A program made the position numbers and the translations under genes. Positions 12,312 to 54,992 of a stretch of DNA of 64,000 nucleotides are shown here, piece by piece. Below the pieces are notes generated by a model. It saw nothing but the letters and a program-made list of their open reading frames with translations, ran no database searches and was not told the origin of the DNA. The stretch is from assembly GCA_963710375.1 (NCBI GenBank), contig CAVPZX010000005.1, positions 461,823 through 525,822 of the forward strand. Direction: 5' to 3'. This DNA is from Nitrospirota bacterium. Its GTDB lineage: Bacteria; Nitrospirota; Thermodesulfovibrionia; Thermodesulfovibrionales; Dissulfurispiraceae. How positions within the stretch are numbered: the stretch's first letter is position 1; every line of letters starts with the position of its first letter.

Positions 12312-13051
12312 CTATTTTCTCCACGCCAGAACAGCTTCAAGAGATCAAGAAAATTCTATCAGGCTATATAAGATTACCATTCTCAGACAAAACTATCCCC
12401 GGCGCTGTCATGGAAGCAGTTCTGGCTAAAGTCAGAAATGGAGTAGTTCTTAACACTTATGATTTTGTAGATGTTATAAATGCGGTGTCTCATTGTGGGT
12501 GGCAGGTAAAATCAACGAAAGAAAAAACTCCAGTTACATGGAAAAGAGCTAAATTGCCGAATCAAGATGAACTCATAAAGAACTCTCACGAGAGCAAAGA
12601 AGGGCTACAGGCACTTGGAGACACAATTATTGATTTTTGCAATGCCCATGTTCGGCATAGTATTGAGCTATACGACTTGCGTGAAATCGGATATAGCAGG
12701 CTGATCGTCCATAAAAACTGGACAATTACATATTTTGAAAAATTGCTCTGTGTAAGTGAGAGGCCGGATATTTTTGCTAAGGCCGATTTTTCTTGGAAAT
12801 GGTCTATACCAAAGAAAACAAAGAAAAAAGAACAACTGCCTGCTTTACATGGGACTCATAAGACCCTCAAAAAAAAATGGTGGGCGTGGCATGGATTAGG
12901 CGAAAATCAGTTGCATTTCAGTGGTGAAAGGGCGTGGTGGCCCACTACTTCCGAAGGTCAAATGATGACTTTTGATAGCCCCGCAGATAATGAAAGGATA
13001 TTGTTAGAACGATTTGTAGATTTTCTTGCTAAACTAGATAATTCTGTTTGA
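12308..13051 (+). CDS. Putative type II restriction endonuclease
   Basis: Lies between the C protein and a convergent C5 MTase; E...D...QVKS resembles a PD-(D/E)xK variant; family not recognised. Confidence 0.6.
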   Translation: MTIFSTPEQLQEIKKILSGYIRLPFSDKTIPGAVMEAVLAKVRNGVVLNTYDFVDVINAVSHCGWQVKSTKEKTPVTWKRAKLPNQDELIKNSHESKEGLQALGDTIIDFCNAHVRHSIELYDLREIGYSRLIVHKNWTITYFEKLLCVSERPDIFAKADFSWKWSIPKKTKKKEQLPALHGTHKTLKKKWWAWHGLGENQLHFSGERAWWPTTSEGQMMTFDSPADNERILLERFVDFLAKLDNSV

Positions 13052-14178
13052 TTTAGCATTCCCTCAGCTATTTGTTTTATTAACAAGGGGGGAACGGCAT
13101 TACCAACTTGCCCAGCTTGATCATTGTAAGTGCCAACAAAAATAAAGCTATCAGGAAAGCCTTGTATTCTCGCGACTTCACGTATAGTCAGAATTCTAAG
13201 GTCAACCGGATGACCCCAGCGTCCTGAGCCTGGATGAAATACCCACCGAGTGATGGTTGGCGCAATCATTTTTTTTGTAAGCCGGCCATAGGCCCCGCTG
13301 TATCCACTCTTGACTTGCAAATGGTGTGGTAATTCTTTTAATCCTTCTCCCGGCTTCAATGATGATAGTCTTTCAAATTGCAAAGGCTGGAGTTTACGAG
13401 CTATATGGTTCTTTACGCTCTCTTGTCCATCTCTTATCATTTTCTGGTAATAAGAAAAAGGCTCACATGAGTATGGCATAAACTCAGAGCCTTCGCCATG
13501 TTTCAATGATGGCAAATCGCCTATGGCATCCCAAACGGTGACATGGTTATTAACAGAAAATAGATCGATAATATCTTCTGGAGTGTCGTGTGTGGGATGG
13601 GGTAAATTGAACATTACGCCAAGTCGGTTTCCTACAAAAAAAGCGCGGCGCCGCTTTTGTGGAATTCCATAGTCAGCAGCATTTAGGACAGCATATGATA
13701 CGTAATAATTATCCTCCCTCAGTCGGGCTATTATTTCCTCCGTGTAAGCCAAGTCAAATCCATTTTTCATCTCTGCAACATTTTCCATTAGGATTAGTTG
13801 TGGCCGCAAGTCACGACAGAAATCAAGAAATGTTCTTATCAACTGGTTCTTAGGATCAAGCAAATATCTATTTTTTCTCGGAACGTTCTTGGAGAACCCC
13901 TGACACGGGGGACCGCCTGCGAGTAACGTTAGCTCGCCCGGTTCCAAACCTACCTCTCTCATAAATTGTTCAGTTGATATTTTTGTTAAATCGTTATGAA
14001 AGAGTTTTGCTTCGGGAAAATTATGTTTGAATGTCGCCGAGTACTTTTTTTCAATGTCCGCACCTGCAATAATGTTAACCCCAGCCTGCTTCAGGCCGCA
14101 AGAGATTCCTCCGCATCCGCAGAATAAGTCAATAGCTGTAAGTTTTGGTTCTGACATAATGTTACTCATAGTATTCAA
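12958..14178 (-). CDS. C5-cytosine DNA methyltransferase
   Basis: Motif I DLFCGCGG, IV GGPPCQGFS, VI ENV, VIII QKRRR, X GNAVPP. Confidence 0.97.
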   Translation of the reverse strand: MNTMSNIMSEPKLTAIDLFCGCGGISCGLKQAGVNIIAGADIEKKYSATFKHNFPEAKLFHNDLTKISTEQFMREVGLEPGELTLLAGGPPCQGFSKNVPRKNRYLLDPKNQLIRTFLDFCRDLRPQLILMENVAEMKNGFDLAYTEEIIARLREDNYYVSYAVLNAADYGIPQKRRRAFFVGNRLGVMFNLPHPTHDTPEDIIDLFSVNNHVTVWDAIGDLPSLKHGEGSEFMPYSCEPFSYYQKMIRDGQESVKNHIARKLQPLQFERLSSLKPGEGLKELPHHLQVKSGYSGAYGRLTKKMIAPTITRWVFHPGSGRWGHPVDLRILTIREVARIQGFPDSFIFVGTYNDQAGQVGNAVPPLLIKQIAEGMLNQTELSSLARKSTNRSNNILSLSAGLSKVII

Positions 14179-14434
14179 TTTGCCGCAAAATTGTCAACCC
14201 CCGGTAAATAGCATGTCAAGCAAATATAACAAACTTTGAAGCATTCATTATATATTACTTGGTATTTTAAAAACTTTTGGTCTACTGTCCTATTGAGACT
14301 AATGGCCCTGCTTGCGTGCGGGGGGAGCACGTACGCAAGCAGGGGCCAGAATTATGATAGAATCGCGTGTGTTCTGCGATGGCGTGGTCTTCCCGGTCAA
14401 ATTATCTTGAACGGAGGAAATCTTGAACGCAACT

Positions 14435-15148
14435 TCATTTCTTTATTGGATTAGAAAAGATAGGCAGCAAAACTCCAAAAATGGTTACAAGTAATGTCAA
14501 AGCGGCAATAATTAGGGAGAGGATTTCATATGTGAAAGCCTTCTTGGGTTTTTCATAGGGATAAATCCTAACGTAAGGAAATAGTTTGCCCTTAGAAGAA
14601 AAAAACGAAATAATAATCATTATAGCTGTAAAACAAAATGTGGCAAAGGATAGCAGGAATTTTCCTTTTATTAGTTGTAAGATTCCAAGAAAAAAGGCGG
14701 GACTTATGAGCATGCCTGCTGTTACAGGCATGGCACGAGTTATGATTGAATACCATGGCTTTCTTTTTCTGAAGAAATTGGTAAGCTGTGCGATGCGACC
14801 GAGATAAGAAGCTTCGTCATTAGATGAAATTTGGTAATGAACGAAATTGTGATACATGGTCAAGGAGAGTGAATTATTTATTTCCTGATTATCATCGCGA
14901 GTTAACACAGTTACCGATAATTCATTAGTTGGGGCCTCCTTGCTAAAAGCTTTAACCTCATCAATTGAAGTAAATATTTGCTTAAGGCCTTCATAACCAA
15001 TTTGTACAGACAAATTAATATTCTGAATCGGTGCGCCCGCCGTGAGTATTTGGAGGAGCTCTATCATATCGGCCTTATAAAAAAGAACTGGATGGACTTC
15101 AATTAATTTTGACCATTCTTGTTTCATAGCGCCATTTATCTCCTGCAC
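14435..15148 (-). CDS. Hypothetical membrane protein (about 3 C-terminal TM segments)
   Basis: AT-rich 237-aa ORF with hydrophobic C-terminal stretches. Confidence 0.6.
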   Translation of the reverse strand: MQEINGAMKQEWSKLIEVHPVLFYKADMIELLQILTAGAPIQNINLSVQIGYEGLKQIFTSIDEVKAFSKEAPTNELSVTVLTRDDNQEINNSLSLTMYHNFVHYQISSNDEASYLGRIAQLTNFFRKRKPWYSIITRAMPVTAGMLISPAFFLGILQLIKGKFLLSFATFCFTAIMIIISFFSSKGKLFPYVRIYPYEKPKKAFTYEILSLIIAALTLLVTIFGVLLPIFSNPIKK

Positions 15149-15274
15149 AAGATGAAATACACTGGATTATAACATTTTTTTCTATCAGAGCAGCTATCTA
15201 TAGTCCTTATGATTATGTGCCTCTGCTGCGGGCAGCGCACCGCGAGGCGGGGAGCAGCACGCAAGCAGAGTAGG

Positions 15275-15306
15275 GCAGCCCCCTTACGGTTTAACAAGGG
15301 GGGTGC
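15275..15306. other. Putative nic/dso hairpin for the Rep_trans protein
   Basis: gcagccccctt-acggtttaac-aaggggggtgc: a C-run/G-run stem with TAAC in the loop. Confidence 0.55.
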
Positions 15307-15555
15307 AAAATGCACATGGGAATGGCGTTTGAATTCTTATCTTGAGCCGTTATATGATAAAAGAGAGCATATAAGAGAAGGCATTGCGGGGAAAGTTTTG
15401 GAGGTTTTCCCCTTATTTATCCGGCATCTTATGGGAGAGGTTGGACGTCTCCTACGGTGGGCATGCGGGATAGATAATTTATTACAATGTCTTCTCTCAT
15501 ATGCTCGTTTTTATTCAGACTCACTTATATCCGCAATTGAGTTTCTGAAGTATGT

Positions 15556-15954
15556 TTAACGTTTCTTGCGAAAGTTCGTTATGAGCGTCCATTTAGTATC
15601 ACCAGGCATTCTACACTCCCAGAATAACCAACCATTAACGGGATTCTGAGTTATAGATACAGCAGCCGCAGAAGCAGAATGAAATCTATTGCCATTAATG
15701 ACTAATGCTCCGTTTTCAATTTTGCCTGCATAGCTTTGCCCTTTGTGAAACGCTCGAAACTCTGTTCCATGGGGGAAGGTAACACCTTTTGTAACCCAAG
15801 GCGTGCTGGCATGTTTAGTTATTACCTTGGTGGTATCGGATTCTTTTAGGTCGAATGTTCTCCTCAATACATCATTAAAGCTATCGCTTTCATCCCTGAG
15901 TAGACTCGTCATTTTTTTGTACACCTCGAAATCAATTGGTATGGTTGTATACAT
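15556..15954 (-). CDS. RHH-like N-terminus plus RAMA/DUF2924-like domain protein
   Basis: TIPIDFEVYKK...SFNDVLRR followed by FHSASAAAVSIT...NGWLFW. Confidence 0.6.
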   Translation of the reverse strand: MYTTIPIDFEVYKKMTSLLRDESDSFNDVLRRTFDLKESDTTKVITKHASTPWVTKGVTFPHGTEFRAFHKGQSYAGKIENGALVINGNRFHSASAAAVSITQNPVNGWLFWECRMPGDTKWTLITNFRKKR

Positions 15955-16103
15955 TTGCCCTATTCTCCTTAAATTACTTAAACTATCTTATAGTTAAAAT
16001 AGTAGCATTTATAGTTAGTTGTGTCAAGTAAAAAATTGATTGACAAAACACTTCTACACGTGTTAGCGTGTACACATGCGGCTGGGTGGGGAGGATAACG
16101 CGA

Positions 16104-16406
16104 ATGAGAAAGAAATTAACGCTGACAATTGATGCGGATGTTTACGACATGATTAAAGACTTGCCCCGTAAAATATCTATATCTGAGGTTGTCTCTTTTA
16201 TACTTAAGGCAATGTATCAAGACCTGAAAAAGGGCAGAGAATTAACACAAGAGGAGTTTGAGGTATGGGCAAAGAGCAGTCCTGAATTGGCCGACATCAG
16301 AGAGAGAATGAGGGAACACTGGGGGTCTGGAATAAGAAAGATTGATGAAGTCGTCGAGAAAGTGAAAACGATTGCTAAGCCGAGGAAGAGCAAGAAAGAT
16401 AAATAA
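16104..16406 (+). CDS. Hypothetical, possible ribbon-helix-helix regulator
   Basis: RBS ggagga; MRKKLTLTIDADVY...ISISEVV. Confidence 0.55.
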   Translation: MRKKLTLTIDADVYDMIKDLPRKISISEVVSFILKAMYQDLKKGRELTQEEFEVWAKSSPELADIRERMREHWGSGIRKIDEVVEKVKTIAKPRKSKKDK

Positions 16407-16408
16407 CC

Positions 16409-16690
16409 ATGCAGCAATTAGATAAATATCCCGACCTTATGACACCGGGAGAAGTTGCAGAAGTTCTCGGGTGCAGGCCTGTAACCGTTCCTCGCCTTAG
16501 AGGTCTTATGAAGGCATATGTACTCAACGGAAGAAAGAAGTTTAAGTATAGAAAGCAGGATGTGATTGATTACATAAATTCAAAGGTCGAAAAAAGGGAG
16601 GTGATAGAGATTGCCAGTAAACAGAAGAAAGGACACCGGAAAATGGGGTTACCGACATTATTACCGTGGGAGGAACTACAGAAAGCATGA
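16409..16690 (+). CDS. Probable excisionase (HTH_17/MerR-like)
   Basis: LMTPGEVAEVLG...YRKQDVIDYI; directly upstream of and overlapping the integrase. Confidence 0.7.
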   Translation: MQQLDKYPDLMTPGEVAEVLGCRPVTVPRLRGLMKAYVLNGRKKFKYRKQDVIDYINSKVEKREVIEIASKQKKGHRKMGLPTLLPWEELQKA

Positions 16691-17774
16691 ATGGGATACG
16701 CGAGAAGAGGCCGTCAATGCTTTTAACGAGCTATTAGACAAACTGAGAAGAGAAATTCCAGTTACTGATTCAAATATATATTTGGTTGAAGCTGTGAACG
16801 AATTTATGAAATACTCTAAACGGGTTGGAAAATCTGAAAGTCGATTACTGCACCTGTACCTTAATTTTGAGAAGTTCTTAATTCCTTTTTTGGGTGACAG
16901 TAAAAGATTGAGAGATATTACGCATCTGGATATCGAATCTTTTATAGATGATCAGATGAAGCGACCCATAAAGAACAAAACAATTAAACATTATGTTGAT
17001 GACCTGAACGCATTGCTTAACTGGGCCAAGAAAGAGGAAATCATTTCCGCAAATCCCATGCTCAAAGTTAATAGAAAACGAATCAGACCGGAGAAGATTA
17101 TTAAACAAGGCCACACACCGGAGAAGATTAAAATTTGTGAATCGGTGCTAAACGATGAACAGAGGCTATTTTTTAGGTTCATCAAATTTACCGGGGCCAG
17201 ACTGGATGAAGCTTTAAAAATGATATGGCCCGATGTTCATTACGAAGGTGAAGGCAAGGTTATTTTAAGAGGAACCAAGACTGAAGAATCTTTAAGGGAA
17301 ATAGAAATGTGTAAAGGTCTTCGCCAAACACTTAAAGACTTAGAGAAGCATAGAACTGATTCACCCTACTTGTTTCATAAAAAAGACGGCTCACGGATTT
17401 ATAGAAGAGATAAGCTTTTTAAGAAAATCACGAAGCTTACCGGGATAAAGATTACCGCTAAAAGTCTGAGAGATTATTTCTGCTCTATGATCGGCATGGG
17501 GGACGATGAGTATACCCCAGATATCGTGACCGCACAGAAGCTGATGGGACATGCAAACCTGAACACGACTCAGAGGTATCTCTTTTCGTTAAAAGATCGC
17601 CGTATAAGGGCCGTAGCAATTTTAGACAGAATAGAAGGGATTAGCACTGACATTAGCACGGGACAGGGTATTTCATGCGAGGGGCAAGCCGTAACTCATT
17701 GTAAATTAAAATGGCGGTGCAGGGAATCGAACCCCGGACACTGCGGATATGAGCCGCATGCTCTAACCGTCTGA
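16611..17774 (+). CDS. Tyrosine recombinase/integrase
   Basis: TGARLDE, KSLRD, LMGHANLNTTQRY; RBS gggaggtg before TTG; ORF runs through att into the tRNA antisense strand. Confidence 0.93.
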   Translation: MPVNRRKDTGKWGYRHYYRGRNYRKHEWDTREEAVNAFNELLDKLRREIPVTDSNIYLVEAVNEFMKYSKRVGKSESRLLHLYLNFEKFLIPFLGDSKRLRDITHLDIESFIDDQMKRPIKNKTIKHYVDDLNALLNWAKKEEIISANPMLKVNRKRIRPEKIIKQGHTPEKIKICESVLNDEQRLFFRFIKFTGARLDEALKMIWPDVHYEGEGKVILRGTKTEESLREIEMCKGLRQTLKDLEKHRTDSPYLFHKKDGSRIYRRDKLFKKITKLTGIKITAKSLRDYFCSMIGMGDDEYTPDIVTAQKLMGHANLNTTQRYLFSLKDRRIRAVAILDRIEGISTDISTGQGISCEGQAVTHCKLKWRCRESNPGHCGYEPHALTV

Positions 17775-18014: not shown

Positions 18015-20561
18015 ATGCAAAACAGCTTGGGTGAAGCTGAAATAAAGCTTTTCCAGTTTCTAGAGACCCTGCCAATGGGGATTTTTGTTCTGGACTCACA
18101 AGGAACATCCTGTTATGCAAATACAAAAGCGCAGGAAATGCTCGGCAAAGTGGTGACGGTAGACACCCAAGCCAGTCAGTTGGTTGATACCTTTAATGCA
18201 TACGTAGCAGGTACCGACCGTAAATACCCGCAAGAAGAAATGCCCATAGTCCGGGCACTTGCAGGTGAGACTGTCACTGTTAATGATATAGAGATACGCA
18301 GAGGCGACAGAAGTGTCTACCTTGCAGTGACAGGGTATCCGGTTTATGACGAAACAGGCTCGCTTCTGTACGCTGTTGCCGCCTGCACCGATATTACTCG
18401 CCTTAAAGAGACCGATGCCTACCGTGTCAATTATATTGAAACGCTTGAAGGGTTTGCCAGCCAGCTGATGTCTGCGGAGGGACAGCTAAAAAAATCCTAT
18501 GAAACAACAAGGAGCATTATAGAGAAGGCGCCGCTGGGCATCATTGTGATGAACGAGGACGGAAAGGTCGAGTACGTCAATAAGGCTATGCTTGACCTGG
18601 GTGGTGCGACCGAGCAGCAACTGAAAAACACAAATTTATTGGAACTCCCCGCTTACCAGGCAAAAGGACTTGACCGATTAATAAAAGATGTCTTCAAGGG
18701 AATAACTTTCACGAGTGAAACATTTGAATACACTTCACATTTCGGCAACAAAACGAGCTTTAGGAAATTCACAGGCATTCCTTTCTGCGAGGGCCTAAAT
18801 AAGAAAGCGCTGATTTTTATCGAAGATCTGACCGAACAGAAGAAGGCTGAAAACGTCTTGCGCCAGGCAAAACAGGACTGGGAGAACACCTTCAACTCAA
18901 TTGCCGATATGATTACTATTCACGACCGTGAGTTCAATATCCTGCACGCAAATACCGCCGCACAGGATATTCTCCATCTGGATTTGTTGGGCCTCGATGG
19001 GGCCAAATGTTTTGAGCATTTTCACGGGGAGAAGGAGCCTCACAAAGAATGCGCAGGCTGCGAATGCCTTGTAAACGGCAAATATACGGTTTCAGAGATG
19101 TTCGAACCGCACCTGAACAAATTCATCGAGGTGCGGGCAACCCCCCGTTTTGATGCACAAAAAGATATCACCAGGGTAATCCATGTTGTACGTGATATCA
19201 CGGAACGTAAAAAACTCGAAAATGATCTCATGCATCAGGCCCTCTATGACACACTCACCAATCTGCCCAACAGGGTGCTCCTGCTTGACCGCATTCAAAA
19301 CCTTTATGACCACCAGAAAAGACAGAAAAATTTGTTATTCGCGGTTCTTTTCATTGACCTTGACGAATTCAAGAAAATCAATGACAGCCTTGGGCACATT
19401 ATAGGAGATGAGTTGCTCCTTTCTGTGGCGCGACGCCTGTTGGAATTCACAAGACCGGGCGACACCACCTCCCGTTTTGGAGGTGATGAGTTTGTCATCC
19501 TACTTGACGACCTTGTGAGTGAGGAGCATGCCGTAAACGTGGCAGTAAGAATTCATGAAGCCATGCTTTCAGGATTTAATCTTAACGGCCGTGAGGTCTT
19601 TATCTCCGCAAGCATAGGCATCGCCCTGTCGGACAGTGCTGCTAACAAACCGGAGGACCTGCTGCGAAACGCCGACATAGCGATGTATAACGCCAAAACT
19701 ACAGGCAAAGCACGATATTCTGTTTTTGACAAGAGCATGCATGCGGAAGCCGTTGATTCTCTGACCATCGAGAACGACCTGCGGAAAGCTATTCAACGCG
19801 ACGAACTGCTCGTCTACTACCAGCCTATTGTGGATATTCATACGAAGCGGGTATCAGGGTTCGAGGCTCTGGCCAGATGGCTGCATCCTGTGCGGGGATT
19901 CATTCCGCCTGCCAAATTCATCCCTATAGCGGAAAGTACCGGACTGATAGAATCGATAGGCGCATTCGTGTTGAAAGACGCCTGCAAGTATATCAACCAG
20001 ATAAACGCTCGGTTCCCTCATGATCCCGCTCTCTATGTAAGCGTGAATTTGTCGGCAAAGCAGTTCAACAGCAAGCTCCCTGCTCTTGTCGCAGCTGCCC
20101 TTCTGGAATCATCCTTGGAGAGCGGCAATTTGAGGCTTGAGATAACCGAGGGCACCATCATGGAAAACATCTTTACGGCGTCTTCTATTTTGCATGATTT
20201 AAAAACAATGGGGGTGCAGGTATACCTTGACGACTTCGGCACGGGATATTCGTCTCTTAACTATCTGCATAAATTCCCGGTAAACGCATTGAAAATAGAC
20301 TCCTCATTTACCAGGAACATCCAGGGGGACAAGCAGGCGCAGGAGATACTGAAATCAATACTGGTACTGGCTACCAACCTTGAAATGAAAATGATCATAG
20401 AGGGAGTGGAAGACCAGGAGCAGCTCAACACATTCAAAGATCTTAACTGCCAATTCATCCAGGGCTTTTTATACTCACATCCTTTACCGACGAGTGAGTT
20501 GTTTGCATTTATGGAGCAAGCGGAAGAATTTGTAGCGCGTATTACTGATAAGTTGCGATAA
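18015..20561 (+). CDS. Multi-PAS GGDEF-EAL diguanylate cyclase/phosphodiesterase
   Basis: Three PAS-like segments, DTLTNLPNR, FGGDEF, FEALARW, LDDFGTGYSSL. Confidence 0.95.
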   Translation: MQNSLGEAEIKLFQFLETLPMGIFVLDSQGTSCYANTKAQEMLGKVVTVDTQASQLVDTFNAYVAGTDRKYPQEEMPIVRALAGETVTVNDIEIRRGDRSVYLAVTGYPVYDETGSLLYAVAACTDITRLKETDAYRVNYIETLEGFASQLMSAEGQLKKSYETTRSIIEKAPLGIIVMNEDGKVEYVNKAMLDLGGATEQQLKNTNLLELPAYQAKGLDRLIKDVFKGITFTSETFEYTSHFGNKTSFRKFTGIPFCEGLNKKALIFIEDLTEQKKAENVLRQAKQDWENTFNSIADMITIHDREFNILHANTAAQDILHLDLLGLDGAKCFEHFHGEKEPHKECAGCECLVNGKYTVSEMFEPHLNKFIEVRATPRFDAQKDITRVIHVVRDITERKKLENDLMHQALYDTLTNLPNRVLLLDRIQNLYDHQKRQKNLLFAVLFIDLDEFKKINDSLGHIIGDELLLSVARRLLEFTRPGDTTSRFGGDEFVILLDDLVSEEHAVNVAVRIHEAMLSGFNLNGREVFISASIGIALSDSAANKPEDLLRNADIAMYNAKTTGKARYSVFDKSMHAEAVDSLTIENDLRKAIQRDELLVYYQPIVDIHTKRVSGFEALARWLHPVRGFIPPAKFIPIAESTGLIESIGAFVLKDACKYINQINARFPHDPALYVSVNLSAKQFNSKLPALVAAALLESSLESGNLRLEITEGTIMENIFTASSILHDLKTMGVQVYLDDFGTGYSSLNYLHKFPVNALKIDSSFTRNIQGDKQAQEILKSILVLATNLEMKMIIEGVEDQEQLNTFKDLNCQFIQGFLYSHPLPTSELFAFMEQAEEFVARITDKLR

Positions 20562-37873: not shown

Positions 37874-39139
37874 ATGAAAATGACCAGTATGGACATCTCC
37901 GTCCTGTACGTCGAAGACGAGTCGCAGACCCGCGACAAGATAGCCAGAATATTAAAACGTGAGGTCAAATGCTTGTACCTCGCGGAAAACGGTAAAGAGG
38001 GCCTCGCCCTGTTTGAACGTCACCATCCTGATATCGTGATAACAGATATCAAGATGCCGGTGATGGATGGACTTGAGATGGTGGAGAAGATAAAGGCTGT
38101 CGACAAGAATATTCACGTTATTCTCACTACAGCCCACGGCGAGGCTGATTCCTTCATTAAATCCATCAAGGTAGGTGTTGACAGGTACCTGCTGAAACCG
38201 GTTGACGTGTCCATTCTGATCCAGACCCTCAAGGAGATGGCCCAGATTATCGGCATTGCGCGGGAACTGAAGGAAAAGACCGCCCTTCTGGAGGAATACA
38301 AAAAAGCTGTGGATGAGAGCAACATTGTCTGCAAGACTGATATTGAGGGAAAGATCACATATGTAAACGACCAATTCTGCAAAGCATACGGTTACAACAG
38401 AAAGGAGATCCTCGGCAAGGCCTACAAAGTTATCCTGCACCCGCCGGCTAACGAGGGGCTGTTGCAGGAGCTGCAATCCACTATGGCTTCCAAGAGGATA
38501 TGGAAAGGCATTCTGGAGCACGCGAAGAATGGCGGTAATAGTTATTTCGCGGACATGACTATCATACCAATCCTGAGCGCGGATGGAGAGATAATGGAGT
38601 TTATCTTTATAGGCCACGATGTGACGGAACTCGTCGATGGCACTGAGCGGCTTAAACAGTTGTCCGCCACCGATATCCTTACACAGATTTACAACCGGAT
38701 GGCTTTCAACGACTTCCTTGAAGCGGAACTGCAAAGGGCCCAACGGTACAGTACAGGAATGTCTCTCATCATGTTCGACATCGACCATTTCAAAATCGTC
38801 AATGACACATATGGGCACCTGGCCGGAGATGAGGTGCTGAAGACCCTGGTCAAGGTGGTACAATTGAGCATCCGGAAGGTGGATATCTTAGCCCGGTGGG
38901 GCGGAGAAGAATTTATGATACTGGCGCCGGAAGCGGCGCTGGAAGCGGCATGCGAACTGGCCGAAAGGCTGCGTAAGGAGATCGAGGCCCATGTCTTCTC
39001 TACCGCAGAAAAGATTACCGTAAGCATTGGGGTCACTACTTACCGGGACGGCGACTCCGCAGACTCCATTATCACGAGAGTGGACAACGCTCTTTACAGG
39101 GCCAAGGAGAACGGAAGGAACAGGGTTGAAATCGGATAA
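37874..39139 (+). CDS. REC-PAS-GGDEF diguanylate cyclase
   Basis: VLYVEDE, DIKMP, PAS segment, RWGGEEF. Confidence 0.93.
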   Translation: MKMTSMDISVLYVEDESQTRDKIARILKREVKCLYLAENGKEGLALFERHHPDIVITDIKMPVMDGLEMVEKIKAVDKNIHVILTTAHGEADSFIKSIKVGVDRYLLKPVDVSILIQTLKEMAQIIGIARELKEKTALLEEYKKAVDESNIVCKTDIEGKITYVNDQFCKAYGYNRKEILGKAYKVILHPPANEGLLQELQSTMASKRIWKGILEHAKNGGNSYFADMTIIPILSADGEIMEFIFIGHDVTELVDGTERLKQLSATDILTQIYNRMAFNDFLEAELQRAQRYSTGMSLIMFDIDHFKIVNDTYGHLAGDEVLKTLVKVVQLSIRKVDILARWGGEEFMILAPEAALEAACELAERLRKEIEAHVFSTAEKITVSIGVTTYRDGDSADSIITRVDNALYRAKENGRNRVEIG

Positions 39140-41006: not shown

Positions 41007-41046
41007 AAGAAGTTGATCGAACAATGGCTTTTTGAAAGGAGAATCG

Positions 41047-41403
41047 ATGGCAAAAACATTTACATTGTTTCTGTCCACATCGCCGTATTCTTACGAGAAC
41101 ACTGTTAGCGCCGTAAAAATCGCTGAATCTGCTTTAAACAAAGGTCATACAGTTAATCTCATTGCATCAGGGGACGGCACTTATTGTTTTCTCAAAAGCC
41201 AGAAAGCTAAAGGCATACTTAATGCCGAGGAGGCATTTTCAGGGCTTATTCAAAAAGGACTGAGGGTGTTTATTTGAGGAGGGTGCATGAACTTTCGCCG
41301 TGCAGCGAAAGATAATTACCTCGATGGAGCTGAGGTAGGGTCACTGAAGGGTCTTTTCAAAACTCTCTCGGAGACGGATATCTGGCTTAATCTTGGAGCA
41401 TAA
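41047..41403 (+). CDS. DsrE/TusD family selenoprotein (UxxC), 118 aa
   Basis: LSTSPY...GHTVNL...DGTY; after in-frame TGA 41275-41277 the frame continues GGCMNFRRAAKDNYLDGAEVGSLKGLFKTLSETDIWLNLGA to TAA 41403. Confidence 0.88.
41292..41311 (+). promoter_or_regulatory. Putative bacterial SECIS hairpin
   Basis: ctttcgc-cgtgca-gcgaaag, a perfect 7-bp stem starting 14 nt 3' of the UGA. Confidence 0.65.
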
Positions 41404-41416
41404 TACGGAGGACTAT

Positions 41417-41770
41417 ATGTCGAAGATCATAATGATTCTGAGAAGGCCTCCTTATGGAGACATAAATGCGGCAGAGGCTGTGAGGCATGCAATGGGCGGC
41501 ATTGCGGATGATCTGAACATCCATCTTGTTCTGATTGATGGCGGAGTGCTCTTGACTAAAAAAGGTCAGGACGAGTCAGGGACGGGTTTCACGAATCTTG
41601 AGGAAGCATTAAAGGATTGCATAGATATGGGGGTAGAAGTGTCTGCTGAGGAACTTTCTTTAAGGGACAACTGTTTAGAGCCGCCGGATATCGTTGACGG
41701 GGTCAAGATCATAAGCGAGGCCGAAATAGCTCAACTTTTGACTCATGCAAAGACAACGATGATTTTTTAG
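41417..41770 (+). CDS. DsrF/TusC family protein
   Basis: ILRRPPYG...EAVR, LIDGGV, SLRD, C-terminal TMIF; RBS ggagga. Confidence 0.8.
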   Translation: MSKIIMILRRPPYGDINAAEAVRHAMGGIADDLNIHLVLIDGGVLLTKKGQDESGTGFTNLEEALKDCIDMGVEVSAEELSLRDNCLEPPDIVDGVKIISEAEIAQLLTHAKTTMIF

Positions 41771-41789
41771 AGAAAAGGAGGAGAAGTGC

Positions 41790-42071
41790 ATGATAGTGAT
41801 AGTGAAAAGCGCCCCTGATACACCGGACGGACAAAGAGGACTAAAACTGGCGAGGGATATGGCAGCAGATTTGATTCTTCTTCAAAACAGTGTTTATTTT
41901 GTCCAAGGGCAAAGACTTGAGGACTTTCCGGGCAAGATATATGTCGTTGATGAAGACTTGAGACTCAGGGGTTTGAATGACAGCCGGTTTAGAAACGATT
42001 TTGAAATAATCAATTACGATACCGCTGTCGATTTAATGACCGAAGGCAATAAAGTAGTAGGGATGTTTTGA
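41790..42071 (+). CDS. DsrH/TusB family protein
   Basis: LILLQNSVY, YVVDEDLRLRG, IINYDTAVDL. Confidence 0.85.
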   Translation: MIVIVKSAPDTPDGQRGLKLARDMAADLILLQNSVYFVQGQRLEDFPGKIYVVDEDLRLRGLNDSRFRNDFEIINYDTAVDLMTEGNKVVGMF

Positions 42072-42327: not shown

Positions 42328-42567
42328 TCAGCAGCAAAGTAAACACTTCGCTTAAATCAGAATTAATAATCTACTATTTGTATCAGTTTTTTGTCAACTA
42401 ACACCCAAGCAATAGCAACGAGTAACGGGCTATAAGTAATGGATAACAACCTGAATTAAAATACAAATACTTGCCTATAGCCTACTGCCTATAGCCTGTT
42501 AACTGTTACCTATTTTGACATTAAGGTGTTTATTATGTTAAAAAAACATATAAAAAATCAATCGGGT

Positions 42568-42751
42568 TAGGACTCGCGAATAAATAACTTGTGCATTCAG
42601 GCGCTCAGATTTGGGTCAGATTTGGCTGATCCGACTGAGCAAAACCGCAGGCGTAGCAGAGCTACGCTGAGGATTTTGAGACTGAGGATCGGGCAAAGAT
42701 GGCCTGAAGATGAGATGCATCAAGGTATAAGTTATTTATTCGCGAGTCCTA
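42568..42751. mobile_element. MITE-like palindromic element (184 bp)
   Basis: 23-bp perfect terminal inverted repeats taggactcgcgaataaataactt / aagttatttattcgcgagtccta, with an internal hairpin. Confidence 0.75.
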
Positions 42752-42762
42752 GGGGGCGTTAT

Positions 42763-44017
42763 ATGCATCTTTTCAATTATAAAAATGGAGAATTGTATGC
42801 TGAAGATGTGGCAGTGAAGGATATTGTTGCCAAATTCGGCACTCCTGTCTTTATTTACAGCTATAACACTCTGCTTAGGCATCTTAAGGCATATAAAGAT
42901 GCATTTGGCGGCTTTCCACACCTGATTTGTTATGCCATCAAAGCTAACTCAAACATTGCGCTTTTGAAACTGTTTGCAAAAAACGGAAGCGGTGCGGATG
43001 TTGTTTCAGGAGGAGAACTTTACAGGGCGCTTAAAGCCGGTATCCCGGCAAGGAAAATGGTATATGCCGGCGTCGGCAAAACCGGAGAGGAGATTCGGTA
43101 TGCCTTGAAAAGCAAGATTCTTATGTTTAACGTGGAATCTGAGAATGAGCTGCGGGAAATTGACAGAATTGCGGGTAAAATGAAGACAAAAGCCCCGGTT
43201 GCGCTAAGGATCAATCCTGATATAGACACCATGACCCATCCCTATATCTCTACCGGATTGAGAAAACATAAATTCGGAATCCCGATGGAGAATGCGCTCG
43301 AGTACTACAAGCTTGCACTCGACATGAAAAATGTCTCTGTTATCGGCATTCACAAGCATATCGGTTCCCAGCTCACAAAAGTTTTGCCGTTTGTTGATGC
43401 ACTCAAGAGGATACTGATGCTTATGGATGAACTTTCAAAGCACGGGGTAAAGATAGAATATCTCGACATTGGAGGTGGGTTGGGCATCACTTATTACGAT
43501 GAGACTCCCCCAAATCCAGCGCAGCTTGCGAGGAATATTTTGCCTTTGCTTAAAGACAGAAAGCTTACACTTATTTTAGAACCTGGCAGGTCTATTGTAG
43601 GCAATGCAGGCATTCTGGTTACTAAGACACTTTATCTCAAAAAAGGAGAAGATAAGGATTTTGTCATAGTCGATGCTGGAATGAACGATCTCATACGGCC
43701 TTCCATCTACAGTGCGTACCACCATGTGCAGCCTGTGCTGAAAAACCGAAAAGAGAAGATATTTGCGGATATAGTAGGTCCTATATGCGAGTCCGGAGAT
43801 TTTCTTGCTAAGGACAGGGAGACTGCAGAGCGTCATGCAGGGTGAGTATCTTGCAGTGATGAGTGCAGGAGCATACGGGTTTGCCATGTCGTCAAATTAT
43901 AACAGCCGCACAAGGGCTGCAGAGGTGATCGTAAAAGGCAAGAGCTGTTCCCTTATCAGAAAAAGGGAGATTTACAGCGATCTCGTGAAGGGCGAGAGTA
44001 TTCCGAAGTTTATCTGA
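42763..44017 (+). CDS. lysA: Diaminopimelate decarboxylase, with an apparent 1-nt insertion near 43820
   Basis: YAIKAN, HKHIGSQ, EPGR, GPICESGD; the C-terminus GAYGFAMSSNYNSR is in the +1 frame. Confidence 0.92.
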
Positions 44018-44019
44018 AT

Positions 44020-45132
44020 ATGGAACTTGTTTTTACAAAAATGCAAGGGACGGGCAATGACTTTGTTGTTATTGACAGCAGGGATGTCGACTTGTCTCGT
44101 CATTTCGATATGCCTGAACTTGCCAGGACGCTCTGCAACAGGAGATTCGGCATTGGCGCGGACCAGCTCTTGATGCTTTGTTCCTCCTCTGAAGCTGATT
44201 TTAAAATGGTGATATTCAATGCAGACGGGAGCGAGGTCGAGATGTGCGGCAACGGTATACGATGCCTTGCCAAATATATCTGGGACCGGAAAATTGCAAC
44301 CAAGGATATCTTGAAAATCGAAACTGCTGCCGGAGTAAGGCGGCCCGAACGTATCGGAGACCTGGTCAGAGTTGACATGGGAGAGCCGGTACTGGCGGCA
44401 GATGAAATTCCGGTTGCCATCGAATCCGCTAACCCGATAATTGATCATCCGCTGATGGTAAATGGCCGGGTGCTCAAGACTACCTGTGTTTCGATGGGGA
44501 ACCCCCATGCAGTAATTTTTCTAAATGAAGATTTTGACAACTTTCCGGTCAATGTTTATGGGCCTGCTGTAGAGAGCCACTCTATTTTTCCGAATAAAAC
44601 CAATGTCGAGTTTGTGAATGTGCTGAATAAAAAGGAAATGAAGATGAGGGTCTGGGAGAGAGGGGTAGGGGAGACATTGGCTTGCGGAACAGGAGCATCG
44701 GCAGCTGCAGTAGCTGCGATACTGAAAGAGCTCACTGACAGGAAAGTGACCATTCACCTTTTGGGAGGAGATATCACTATAGAATGGCCCAGGGATGAGC
44801 GGGTGTTTATGACAGGTCCGGCTGTAGAGGTTTTTGAGGGCAGGATTGCCAATCTTTCCGAAAAGAGGGCCGAACAAAGAAGACATCAGCGCTTGGCCTG
44901 TCAAACCCAGTTCTCTTTCTACAAGAAGGGAGAATCCGGTAATAAGCTTTATAAGTGCGCGTGCGTCGATATAAGCGAATCCGGAGTGGGAGTGGTTGCA
45001 GAAACCGAACTGAAGCCTGGCACTATTATCGCTTTCTTAAAAAAAGATGGTCAGTCGGTGCTCAGGAACGCTGTAGTAATTTGGAGTATAAATTTTAAAG
45101 ACAAATGCAAAGCCGGCCTGATGTTTATATGA
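44020..45132 (+). CDS. dapF: Diaminopimelate epimerase with C-terminal PilZ domain
   Basis: GTGNDF, NADGSEVEMCGNG, SMGNPH, ERGVGETLACGTG; then RRHQR and DISESG. Confidence 0.9.
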   Translation: MELVFTKMQGTGNDFVVIDSRDVDLSRHFDMPELARTLCNRRFGIGADQLLMLCSSSEADFKMVIFNADGSEVEMCGNGIRCLAKYIWDRKIATKDILKIETAAGVRRPERIGDLVRVDMGEPVLAADEIPVAIESANPIIDHPLMVNGRVLKTTCVSMGNPHAVIFLNEDFDNFPVNVYGPAVESHSIFPNKTNVEFVNVLNKKEMKMRVWERGVGETLACGTGASAAAVAAILKELTDRKVTIHLLGGDITIEWPRDERVFMTGPAVEVFEGRIANLSEKRAEQRRHQRLACQTQFSFYKKGESGNKLYKCACVDISESGVGVVAETELKPGTIIAFLKKDGQSVLRNAVVIWSINFKDKCKAGLMFI

Positions 45133-45251
45133 AAAACAGGTTAAGGTTAAGGATAAAATAGTTCGTATGACGAAAAAGAAGAGTTATTCTTTTTTATCTA
45201 ACCCTTAACCTTAACCTTGACTTTAACCTCAGTCTTATAAGGAGGTCTCTA

Positions 45252-46124
45252 ATGCTTAGCGGTTCCATTGTTGCACTGGTAACACCATTCAAGAAGGGTA
45301 AATTTGATGAAAAGGCTTACAGTAATCTTATCGAATGGCATATTGCCCAGGGGACCCACGGCATTGTGCCCTGTGGTACGACAGGAGAGGCATCAACTCT
45401 TGATTATGATGATCATTTCCGTGTTATCGAGGTGGCTGTTAAGACGGCAAGTAAGCGTATACCGGTGATTGCCGGAACAGGGTCAAATGCCACTGACGAA
45501 GCGATAGATATTACAATGAAGGCAAAAAAGCTCGGCGCCGATGCTGCCTTACTGGTTACGCCGTACTATAATAAACCTACACAGGAAGGGCTCTTCCGGC
45601 ATTTTAAGGCTGTTGCAGATGCGGTGGATATCCCTGTCGTGCTTTATAATGTTCCCGGCAGAACAGCGGTCAATATGCTCCCCGCAACCGTTGCGCGCCT
45701 GGCGGAGTGCAAGAACATTGTTGCGATAAAAGAGGCGACGGGTGATTTAAAGCAGGTTAGTGAGCTGATCAGGCTATGCGGCGACAGGATTACAGTCGTT
45801 TCAGGTGATGACTTTACCGTACTGCCGCTCCTCGCCCTCGGCGGCAAGGGAGTGATTACAGTTACCGGCAATATTGCACCAGGGGACATGGCTGAAATGT
45901 GCAATGCCTGGGACAGGGGAGATATTGCAAAGGCGCGTGAACTGCACTTTAAACTCGAACCTCTCAACGCAGCCATGTTTATCGAGACTAACCCGATTCC
46001 GGTAAAAACGGCCCTTGCGCTTATGGGAAAGATAAGTGAGGAATTCAGGCTCCCTCTATGCGAAATGTCCTCTGCAAATAAAGAGAAACTGAAAGGTGCG
46101 CTGAAAAATGCGGGAATCATTTAA
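45252..46124 (+). CDS. dapA: 4-hydroxy-tetrahydrodipicolinate synthase
   Basis: GTTGE, PYYNKP, YNVPGRT, IKEATG, ETNPIPVK. Confidence 0.97.
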   Translation: MLSGSIVALVTPFKKGKFDEKAYSNLIEWHIAQGTHGIVPCGTTGEASTLDYDDHFRVIEVAVKTASKRIPVIAGTGSNATDEAIDITMKAKKLGADAALLVTPYYNKPTQEGLFRHFKAVADAVDIPVVLYNVPGRTAVNMLPATVARLAECKNIVAIKEATGDLKQVSELIRLCGDRITVVSGDDFTVLPLLALGGKGVITVTGNIAPGDMAEMCNAWDRGDIAKARELHFKLEPLNAAMFIETNPIPVKTALALMGKISEEFRLPLCEMSSANKEKLKGALKNAGII

Positions 46125-46725
46125 GAAAAGGCAAAGGGCAAAGGGCGTGGGGCAAAAGTTAGAAGAAGACACAAAAGGTGGAAAGTCTGTGTTTTATTCT
46201 TTACTTTTTACCTTTTGTTTTTTGCCTTTAGCCTTTAGCCTTTTGCCTTTAGCCGATTCCGTTATTTACGCCGGTCCTCCTTCCCCATTTGACGGAGAAA
46301 AAAATATTAACCAGCAGGCGCCAGAATTTGCATTAAAAGATATTAACGGCAATACGCTCTCTCTATCTTCTTATAAGGGCAGGGTGGTTCTTCTTAACTT
46401 CTGGGCAACCTGGTGCCCGTCCTGCAGAGAGGAGATGCCCTCTTTGAATAAGTTGAGTCAAAAGTTAAAAAACAGGAATTTCTCAATTATTGAGGTATCC
46501 GCCGATCGGTCAGTCTCGGATGTAAAGGATTATCTGAGGAAACATCCTTCAGACTGCACCGTAGTGGTGGATGACAGCCTTTCCGTATCAAGATCTCTTT
46601 ATAAAGTGTTTGTGCTGCCGACGAGCTTCCTTATCGATAAGAAAGGCATAATTGTGAAGAAGTACTACGGGGGAGAAGACTGGGATGGTTCTGAAATGGT
46701 AAGTAAAATAGAGTCACTCCTGTAA
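46108..46725 (+). CDS. TlpA/ResA family thiol-disulfide oxidoreductase
   Basis: LLNFWATWCPSCREEMP, LPTSFLID. Confidence 0.9.
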   Translation: MRESFKKRQRAKGVGQKLEEDTKGGKSVFYSLLFTFCFLPLAFSLLPLADSVIYAGPPSPFDGEKNINQQAPEFALKDINGNTLSLSSYKGRVVLLNFWATWCPSCREEMPSLNKLSQKLKNRNFSIIEVSADRSVSDVKDYLRKHPSDCTVVVDDSLSVSRSLYKVFVLPTSFLIDKKGIIVKKYYGGEDWDGSEMVSKIESLL

Positions 46726-54515: not shown

Positions 54516-54992
54516 ATGGAAAAGAAGCAGCAACGTGATAAGACAAAAAAAAGTATTGGAAGCACAAGCTCAAAGAAGGAGCATGACAGGAGTTTTTTCA
54601 GGGTTGATGCCCATATCCATATGTTAAGCGGTCTGGTTCCCCACGAAGAGAGGGCTAATATCTCATCGAGGGAGCTCCCATCCACACCTGTCAGTGCATG
54701 GGAGACGGAGACGTTGAAGAAAGTGAATATTAGCGGTGCGGGCATTGCTTTTCATTCCGACGACTTTTACGCAGTTGGAGATATTGTTGCGCTTAAAATG
54801 ATGTTCAAGAAGGATTGGGCAGTTCCGTTGCTTGTTTATGGCGAGGTAATGCGTGTTGAGCCACTTACGCGATATTGCCGGGTTGCGGTGAAATTCGTAG
54901 CTCTCAATGAGAGGATAAAGAGCATCATTATGCGGTTCGTATTCGAAAGAGAGCGGGATATAATAGCGGAAAAAAGGGTAGGGTGGCTATAG
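54516..54992 (+). CDS. PilZ domain protein
   Basis: RSFFR (RxxxR) and NISGAG motifs. Confidence 0.8.
   Translation: MEKKQQRDKTKKSIGSTSSKKEHDRSFFRVDAHIHMLSGLVPHEERANISSRELPSTPVSAWETETLKKVNISGAGIAFHSDDFYAVGDIVALKMMFKKDWAVPLLVYGEVMRVEPLTRYCRVAVKFVALNERIKSIIMRFVFERERDIIAEKRVGWL

Follow-up and report, generated by a model that had tools for sequence, protein, structure and literature searches.

The gene that spans the dapF position of the window (the whole stretch of DNA analysed, 64,000 nucleotides) raises the question of whether c-di-GMP acts directly on the supply of meso-diaminopimelate (meso-DAP). The original prediction described a complete diaminopimelate epimerase (DapF) with both catalytic cysteines, continuing in frame into a tail with the RxxxR and DxSxxG motifs of PilZ domains, in the gene order lysA-dapF-dapA. 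Profile searches bear this description out. Pfam placed DAP_epimerase on the fusion as two stretches (218.8 bits), and the DapF profile TIGR00652 scored 301.1 bits against a curated cut-off of 114.65, with model positions 2-269 of 270 covered. PilZ (PF07238) was found at residues 285-369 with 35.5 bits, the cut-off being 22.5; the motif letters in the window are RRHQR (residues 287-291) and DISESG (residues 317-322). The active-site set of C76, C222, N13, Q49, N67, N161, H163, N195, E213 and R214 is present, and its non-cysteine members (N13, Q49, N67, N161, H163, N195, E213, R214) are those that we take to bind the substrate. The profile of the bifunctional DapF/glutamate racemase (NF038284) remained below its cut-off (117.4 bits against 350). 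The Pfam scan returned the expected gene order, and the window does encode two GGDEF proteins (18015-20561 and 37874-39139) and another PilZ protein (54516-54992). Coordinates of the locus are given in Table 1.

Table 1. Features of the lysA-dapF-pilZ-dapA locus, with positions in the window and residues of the fusion protein.
Feature	Position	Strand	Remarks
lysA, upstream in the operon	42763..44017	+	Reading frame broken by one extra base near 43822
dapF-pilZ fusion gene	44020..45132	+	370 aa ORF without internal stop
DapF domain, residues 1-277	44020..44850	+	TIGR00652 match 4-277; Foldseek to DapF structures, E 2.5e-34
Last DapF strand, residues 269-276			Model strand E269-276; equivalent to the strand at the dimer interface in solved DapF (interface from excerpts of PMC13728532)
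Catalytic Cys76	44245..44247	+	
Catalytic Cys222	44683..44685	+	
Short linker, residues 278-284	44851..44871	+	Low model confidence, pLDDT <50 at 283-287
Compact PilZ domain, residues 285-370	44872..45129	+	PF07238; six-stranded barrel, C-terminal helix absent (model)
RxxxR motif (R287, R291)	44878..44892	+	37/37 full-length fusions
DxSxxG motif (D317, S319, G322)	44968..44985	+	37/37 full-length fusions
Intergenic hairpin of 7-base repeats, between fusion and dapA	45138..45217	.	Many similar intergenic stretches in the genome
dapA (DHDPS), downstream	45252..46124	+	Possible alternative PilZ target

Because lysA is frameshifted in the window, we checked the assembly, including the dapF-pilZ junction. 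The junction is spanned by contigs of run X2 (44485-45091) and by a contig of run X3, which comes from another study (44660-45418), in both cases with 0 other letters and 0 gaps. Contigs of run X1, which may be the source of the window, match the junction too, and in a fourth run it was scarcely covered. Thus, no stop was lost near 44850, and the fusion is not an assembly error, since contigs from two studies match it exactly. A fusion created by a sequencing error is rejected on the same grounds and because relatives carry the fusion without a stop. The extra base in lysA is missing from the contigs of X1, X2 and X3, so the lysA frameshift is an assembly error.

We modelled the protein to see what the tail looks like. 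The full-length model (pLDDT 88, pTM 0.71) consists of a normal DapF and a separate barrel, with a low-confidence linker at 283-287. Modelled alone, the PilZ domain has six strands (pLDDT 88) and ends at profile position 85 of 102, so the C-terminal helix of the canonical PilZ domain is absent. Such a helix is common in PilZ domains and not universal. Every one of the 16 highest-ranking structural matches is a PilZ-domain protein. The best is c-di-GMP-bound PA0012/TssZ of Pseudomonas aeruginosa (PDB 8U0I; Z 10.8, rmsd 2.5 over 80 of 85 residues), followed by VCA0042, BcsA and Alg44. Since the 85-residue chain of PA0012 was solved with c-di-GMP, the lack of the helix is no bar to binding; the RxxxR motif of PA0012 is required for binding, according to excerpts of PMC10912698. 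The PilZ domain of the DapF fusion is predicted, with high confidence, to bind c-di-GMP. The two proteins are similarly short in this domain and differ in other respects: PA0012 is a stand-alone single-domain adaptor with 19% identity that partners a transcription regulator, HinK, rather than a metabolic enzyme.

The motifs are conserved. In their canonical definition (taken from part of bioRxiv 10.1101/2020.02.11.943704), both were kept in all 37 full-length fused proteins, and the DapF active-site set in 35 of them; many of these rows are close kin, some of them near-identical, and one more row, of 38, has a decayed tail. Both motifs were strictly present in 29 of the 34 free domains and in 44 of the 48 fused and free domains taken together. 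Pairwise Nei-Gojobori dN/dS, calculated for pairs that are not independent of each other, was 0.15-0.34 for the fused PilZ domain (10 of 14 pairs, the rest being saturated), 0.06-0.27 for the DapF part and 0.04-0.38 for the free PilZ domain (11 of 13 pairs). The fused PilZ domain is under purifying selection.

We also determined how widely the fusion is spread. Among 41 related genomes it was matched over its whole length without a stop in eight, its own genome included, and in pieces in two more; searching protein sequences with the junction region turned up 20 relatives, one of which its source names Dissulfurispiraceae, and a second search added more. Classification of 90 dapF loci from 89 genomes gave 12 fused loci, 3 fused loci with a second free pilZ, 37 split loci (three of which are truncated or run into a contig end) and 38 loci without pilZ (one of which runs off its contig). 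All 15 fused loci belong to the family of the window, which the names of relatives identify as Dissulfurispiraceae; there they make up 15 of 57 dapF loci and occur in 6 genera. Three genomes (G015, G016, G169) hold both fused and free copies, which suggests a separate function for the fused copy. In the split arrangement, seen in 7 families of the order Thermodesulfovibrionales (f1, f2, f6, f8, f11, f12, f13), dapF is followed immediately by a separate, homologous pilZ gene, with dapA next in every case where the contig extends that far. The part of the 90-locus set outside Dissulfurispiraceae had been picked partly for signs of a downstream PilZ; therefore, 40 further loci were fetched without that filter. 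In these, pilZ lies between dapF and dapA in 8 of 26 loci of the order (one frameshifted) and is missing in 18, and outside the order it lies behind dapF in 0 of 14. Searches of 301 genomes of the order and 251 of the phylum gave no fusion outside the family among the matches listed (best 150 each). No longer DapF-PilZ fusions (649-2000 aa) were found, in what is a weak test, and the ESM Atlas returned plain DapF clusters and no fusion cluster. One variant form deserves mention: in G295 (L100:997-2229) and P0029 the fused protein is 410 aa long, its DapF part having an insert of roughly 40 residues that is possibly a translated 7-base repeat.

The domain has been gained or lost often. On a DapF+DapA tree of 101 genomes, PilZ presence requires 20 gains or losses, and a quick DapF tree places fused forms in several family lineages with losses nested within. 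Traces of the losses are visible as a linker stump (G002, G010) and an internally deleted PilZ domain (G300); two genomes (G127, G066) have the free copy only, amid relatives with fused and free copies. On the PilZ tree, fused domains fall into about three groups, and together with some free family copies they cluster in a single supported group that excludes the remaining free copies. A single origin of the fusion was not rejected (p-AU 0.47). The simplest account, as far as unrooted trees allow, would be an old dapF-pilZ-dapA arrangement, followed by duplication and fusion in Dissulfurispiraceae and then by repeated loss.

One genome, G263, has a second DapF-PilZ protein (L093:6995-8107; G263:C42), on a different contig, away from dapA and the dap operon. 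Both cysteines and both PilZ motifs are kept in it, and N161, H163, N195, R214 and others are changed. Its DapF branch is long (0.72 against 0.16). The paralog may have lost its activity or act on a new substrate. G263 is 3% contaminated, so the origin of the contig is uncertain; a cluster 97% identical to the paralog (P0022) occurs in other data. The paralog gene is convergent with what reads by eye as a formate dehydrogenase cluster.

The genome of the window (98.8% complete) contains one DapF, a DapL-type aminotransferase over its cut-off and no match to DAP dehydrogenase. Thus, the fusion is likely the sole route to meso-DAP. The genome also contains 12 GGDEF matches, as befits a cell that makes c-di-GMP; since GGDEF genes were found in all 80 genomes tested from the set of 89, whether pilZ is kept or not, their presence is uninformative about pilZ. 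A TlpA-like thioredoxin gene (46108-46725) overlaps the end of dapA and is kept there in most family loci viewed. The DapF cysteines can form a disulfide, according to excerpts of PMC13728532.

How could a PilZ domain act on this enzyme? The P. aeruginosa DapF dimer forms via its C-terminal strand, as described in parts of PMC13728532. Because the last DapF strand of the model matches this interface strand, the ligand-binding loop lies about 11 residues past the dimer interface, and from this geometry we infer a mechanism that works through the dimer. Our leading reading, which we put a little short of an even chance, is that c-di-GMP modulates DapF via the PilZ domain hung off the interface strand. 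A separate pilZ gene would have come first, its product acting in trans as an adaptor; in Dissulfurispiraceae it would have been joined to dapF, in some lineages after a tandem duplication. On binding c-di-GMP, the RxxxR loop would close over the barrel and the two PilZ domains would be pulled in beside the dimer axis, and this repositioning could alter dimer stability or domain closure. Our guess is that the effect would somewhat more probably be a damped meso-DAP supply at high c-di-GMP than a release of auto-inhibition. As DapF lineages without PilZ persist, such control would be optional. A complex of a DapF dimer from a split genome with its free PilZ and two c-di-GMP was predicted with a score of 0.00, in a run without controls that gives no verdict either way.

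The original prediction that c-di-GMP controls meso-DAP supply fares differently in its two parts. The link of PilZ to the operon has been strengthened, because the split dapF-pilZ-dapA arrangement extends across the order. Conservation of the domain on DapF, and as a separate operon gene in relatives, makes it likely that c-di-GMP tunes a housekeeping pathway. Direct control of the epimerase is the less secure part: the domain is often lost, no enzyme residue clearly tracks it, and the target could be DapA or an outside protein. Among the columns listed, none of DapF or DapA clearly followed PilZ presence in 15 independent pairs, a comparison of low power.

The strongest alternative is one that we consider rather unlikely. 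Here, PilZ would be a c-di-GMP adaptor for an unrelated target in motility, pili or signalling, lodged in a steadily expressed operon, and the fusion would have arisen by stop loss between neighbouring genes and been tolerated since both parts work alone. The roughly 20 gains or losses and the missing co-variation fit this. So does the ease of fusing, as in most split loci no more than about 20 bases separate the dapF stop from the start of the free pilZ. Paralogs are scattered as well: each genome has 0-13 matches to the short PilZ family, and in a scan of 30 longer relatives fusions to receiver domains were frequent, with some to a methyltransferase or DUF2934 domain. However, the position in the operon is unchanged across 7 families, although the PilZ sequences have only 35% mean column identity; three genomes retain fused and free copies side by side; and DapF and PilZ were relocated together in the G263 paralog. 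Within the short PilZ family, we noted two adjacent paralogs at G000:C3:145497-147024, of which at least the longer lacks the strict RxxxR spacing by eye.

An improbable alternative is that PilZ binds DapA in a c-di-GMP-dependent manner and DapF is a mere carrier. DapA catalyses the first committed, lysine-inhibited step, at which the pathway is usually controlled. The gene order fits such a target, the free pilZ being as near dapA as dapF: its end lies 10-35 bases before dapA in 30 of the 35 loci measured, and in G061 it is directly before dapA and more than 500 bases from dapF. Yet all fusions seen are to DapF and none to DapA, the G263 paralog has no dapA alongside, and the DapA residues that we assume to form the lysine site are identical with and without pilZ.

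Slightly less probable again is that catalysis is unaffected and c-di-GMP switches the partners or the location of the DapF dimer. E. coli DapF binds and stimulates RppH (excerpts of PMC13728532), single-domain PilZ proteins work via partners (parts of PMC10912698), and the G263 paralog holds both domains together while its active-site residues have changed; against this, the partner is hypothetical and the altered paralog was seen in a single lineage (G263 and cluster P0022). The E. coli complex (PDB 6D13) resembles our case in that a second protein docks onto DapF. It differs in that an RNA pyrophosphohydrolase is bound in trans, with no second messenger. Since RppH binding leaves the epimerase activity of E. 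coli DapF unchanged, according to the same passages of PMC13728532, a DapF partner need not regulate DapF, which weighs somewhat against modulation of the enzyme by PilZ.

Returning to modulation of DapF by its own PilZ domain, we compared the fusion with known systems. The DapF part has the two-domain fold, both catalytic cysteines and the lysA-dapF-dapA operon of known DapFs (TIGR00652, PF01678; PDB 8QZY, 9MRO, 4IJZ), with 40-48% identity to the best solved structures. The listed solved DapFs have 274-301 residues without an extra domain, whereas here PilZ follows the dimer-interface strand. The cellulose synthase BcsA and Alg44 (structural matches, Z 9-10) are cases of PilZ attached to or acting on an enzyme, and the RxxxR motif of BcsA sits in the linker that immediately follows the enzyme body (excerpts of PMC12564702). 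In contrast to these membrane systems of exopolysaccharide synthesis, whose activation was shown experimentally, the present enzyme is a soluble one of amino-acid metabolism known from its sequence.

In the literature searched, no paper treats PilZ together with diaminopimelate epimerase, and no characterised example was found, as had been supposed; published PilZ surveys or their supplements might list the architecture. PilZ and dapF appear together only in a Leptospira transcriptome, each term once. A PilZ network study built networks for single- and di-domain proteins of <=280 aa (part of bioRxiv 10.1101/2020.02.11.943704), and a 2026 preprint deals with the reverse direction, from peptidoglycan precursor stress to c-di-GMP (part of bioRxiv 10.64898/2026.06.11.731730). 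Database entries already label relatives with both Pfam domains. The DapF-PilZ architecture is real, conserved and selected, and is on record in databases yet apparently undescribed in the literature searched.

In that literature the targets of PilZ are of three kinds (polysaccharide synthases, signalling proteins, transcription regulators), and a response of the DAP/lysine housekeeping pathway to c-di-GMP is unreported there. We tentatively suggest, with less confidence than for modulation of DapF itself, an order-wide c-di-GMP switch on this pathway: a small PilZ adaptor encoded between dapF and dapA, and hard-wired to DapF in one family, would gate the meso-DAP supply for wall and lysine, and the altered second DapF-PilZ of one lineage could be a regulatory partner subunit. 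If true, the motile-to-sessile signal would be tied directly to wall and lysine supply via a core precursor enzyme, and a candidate partner would be indicated for one uncharacterised single-domain PilZ family. Being small and soluble, and occurring naturally in fused, split, doubled and lost states, the system lends itself to tests in vitro.

Several other elements were observed in the window. Just upstream of lysA there is a palindromic element of about 185 bases (42564-42756) with terminal inverted repeats of about 30 bases. It has 63 BLAST matches in the genome when both orientations are counted, about 20 of them near-full-length among the best 40 of 63, and it looks like a MITE. A C-5 DNA methylase and a phage-type integrase at 12958-17774 suggest a small integrated element. 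Three small DsrE/DsrE/DsrH-like genes (41032-42071) lie upstream of two tRNA-like stretches, and the first ORF of this set, with 81 aa, may be cut short.
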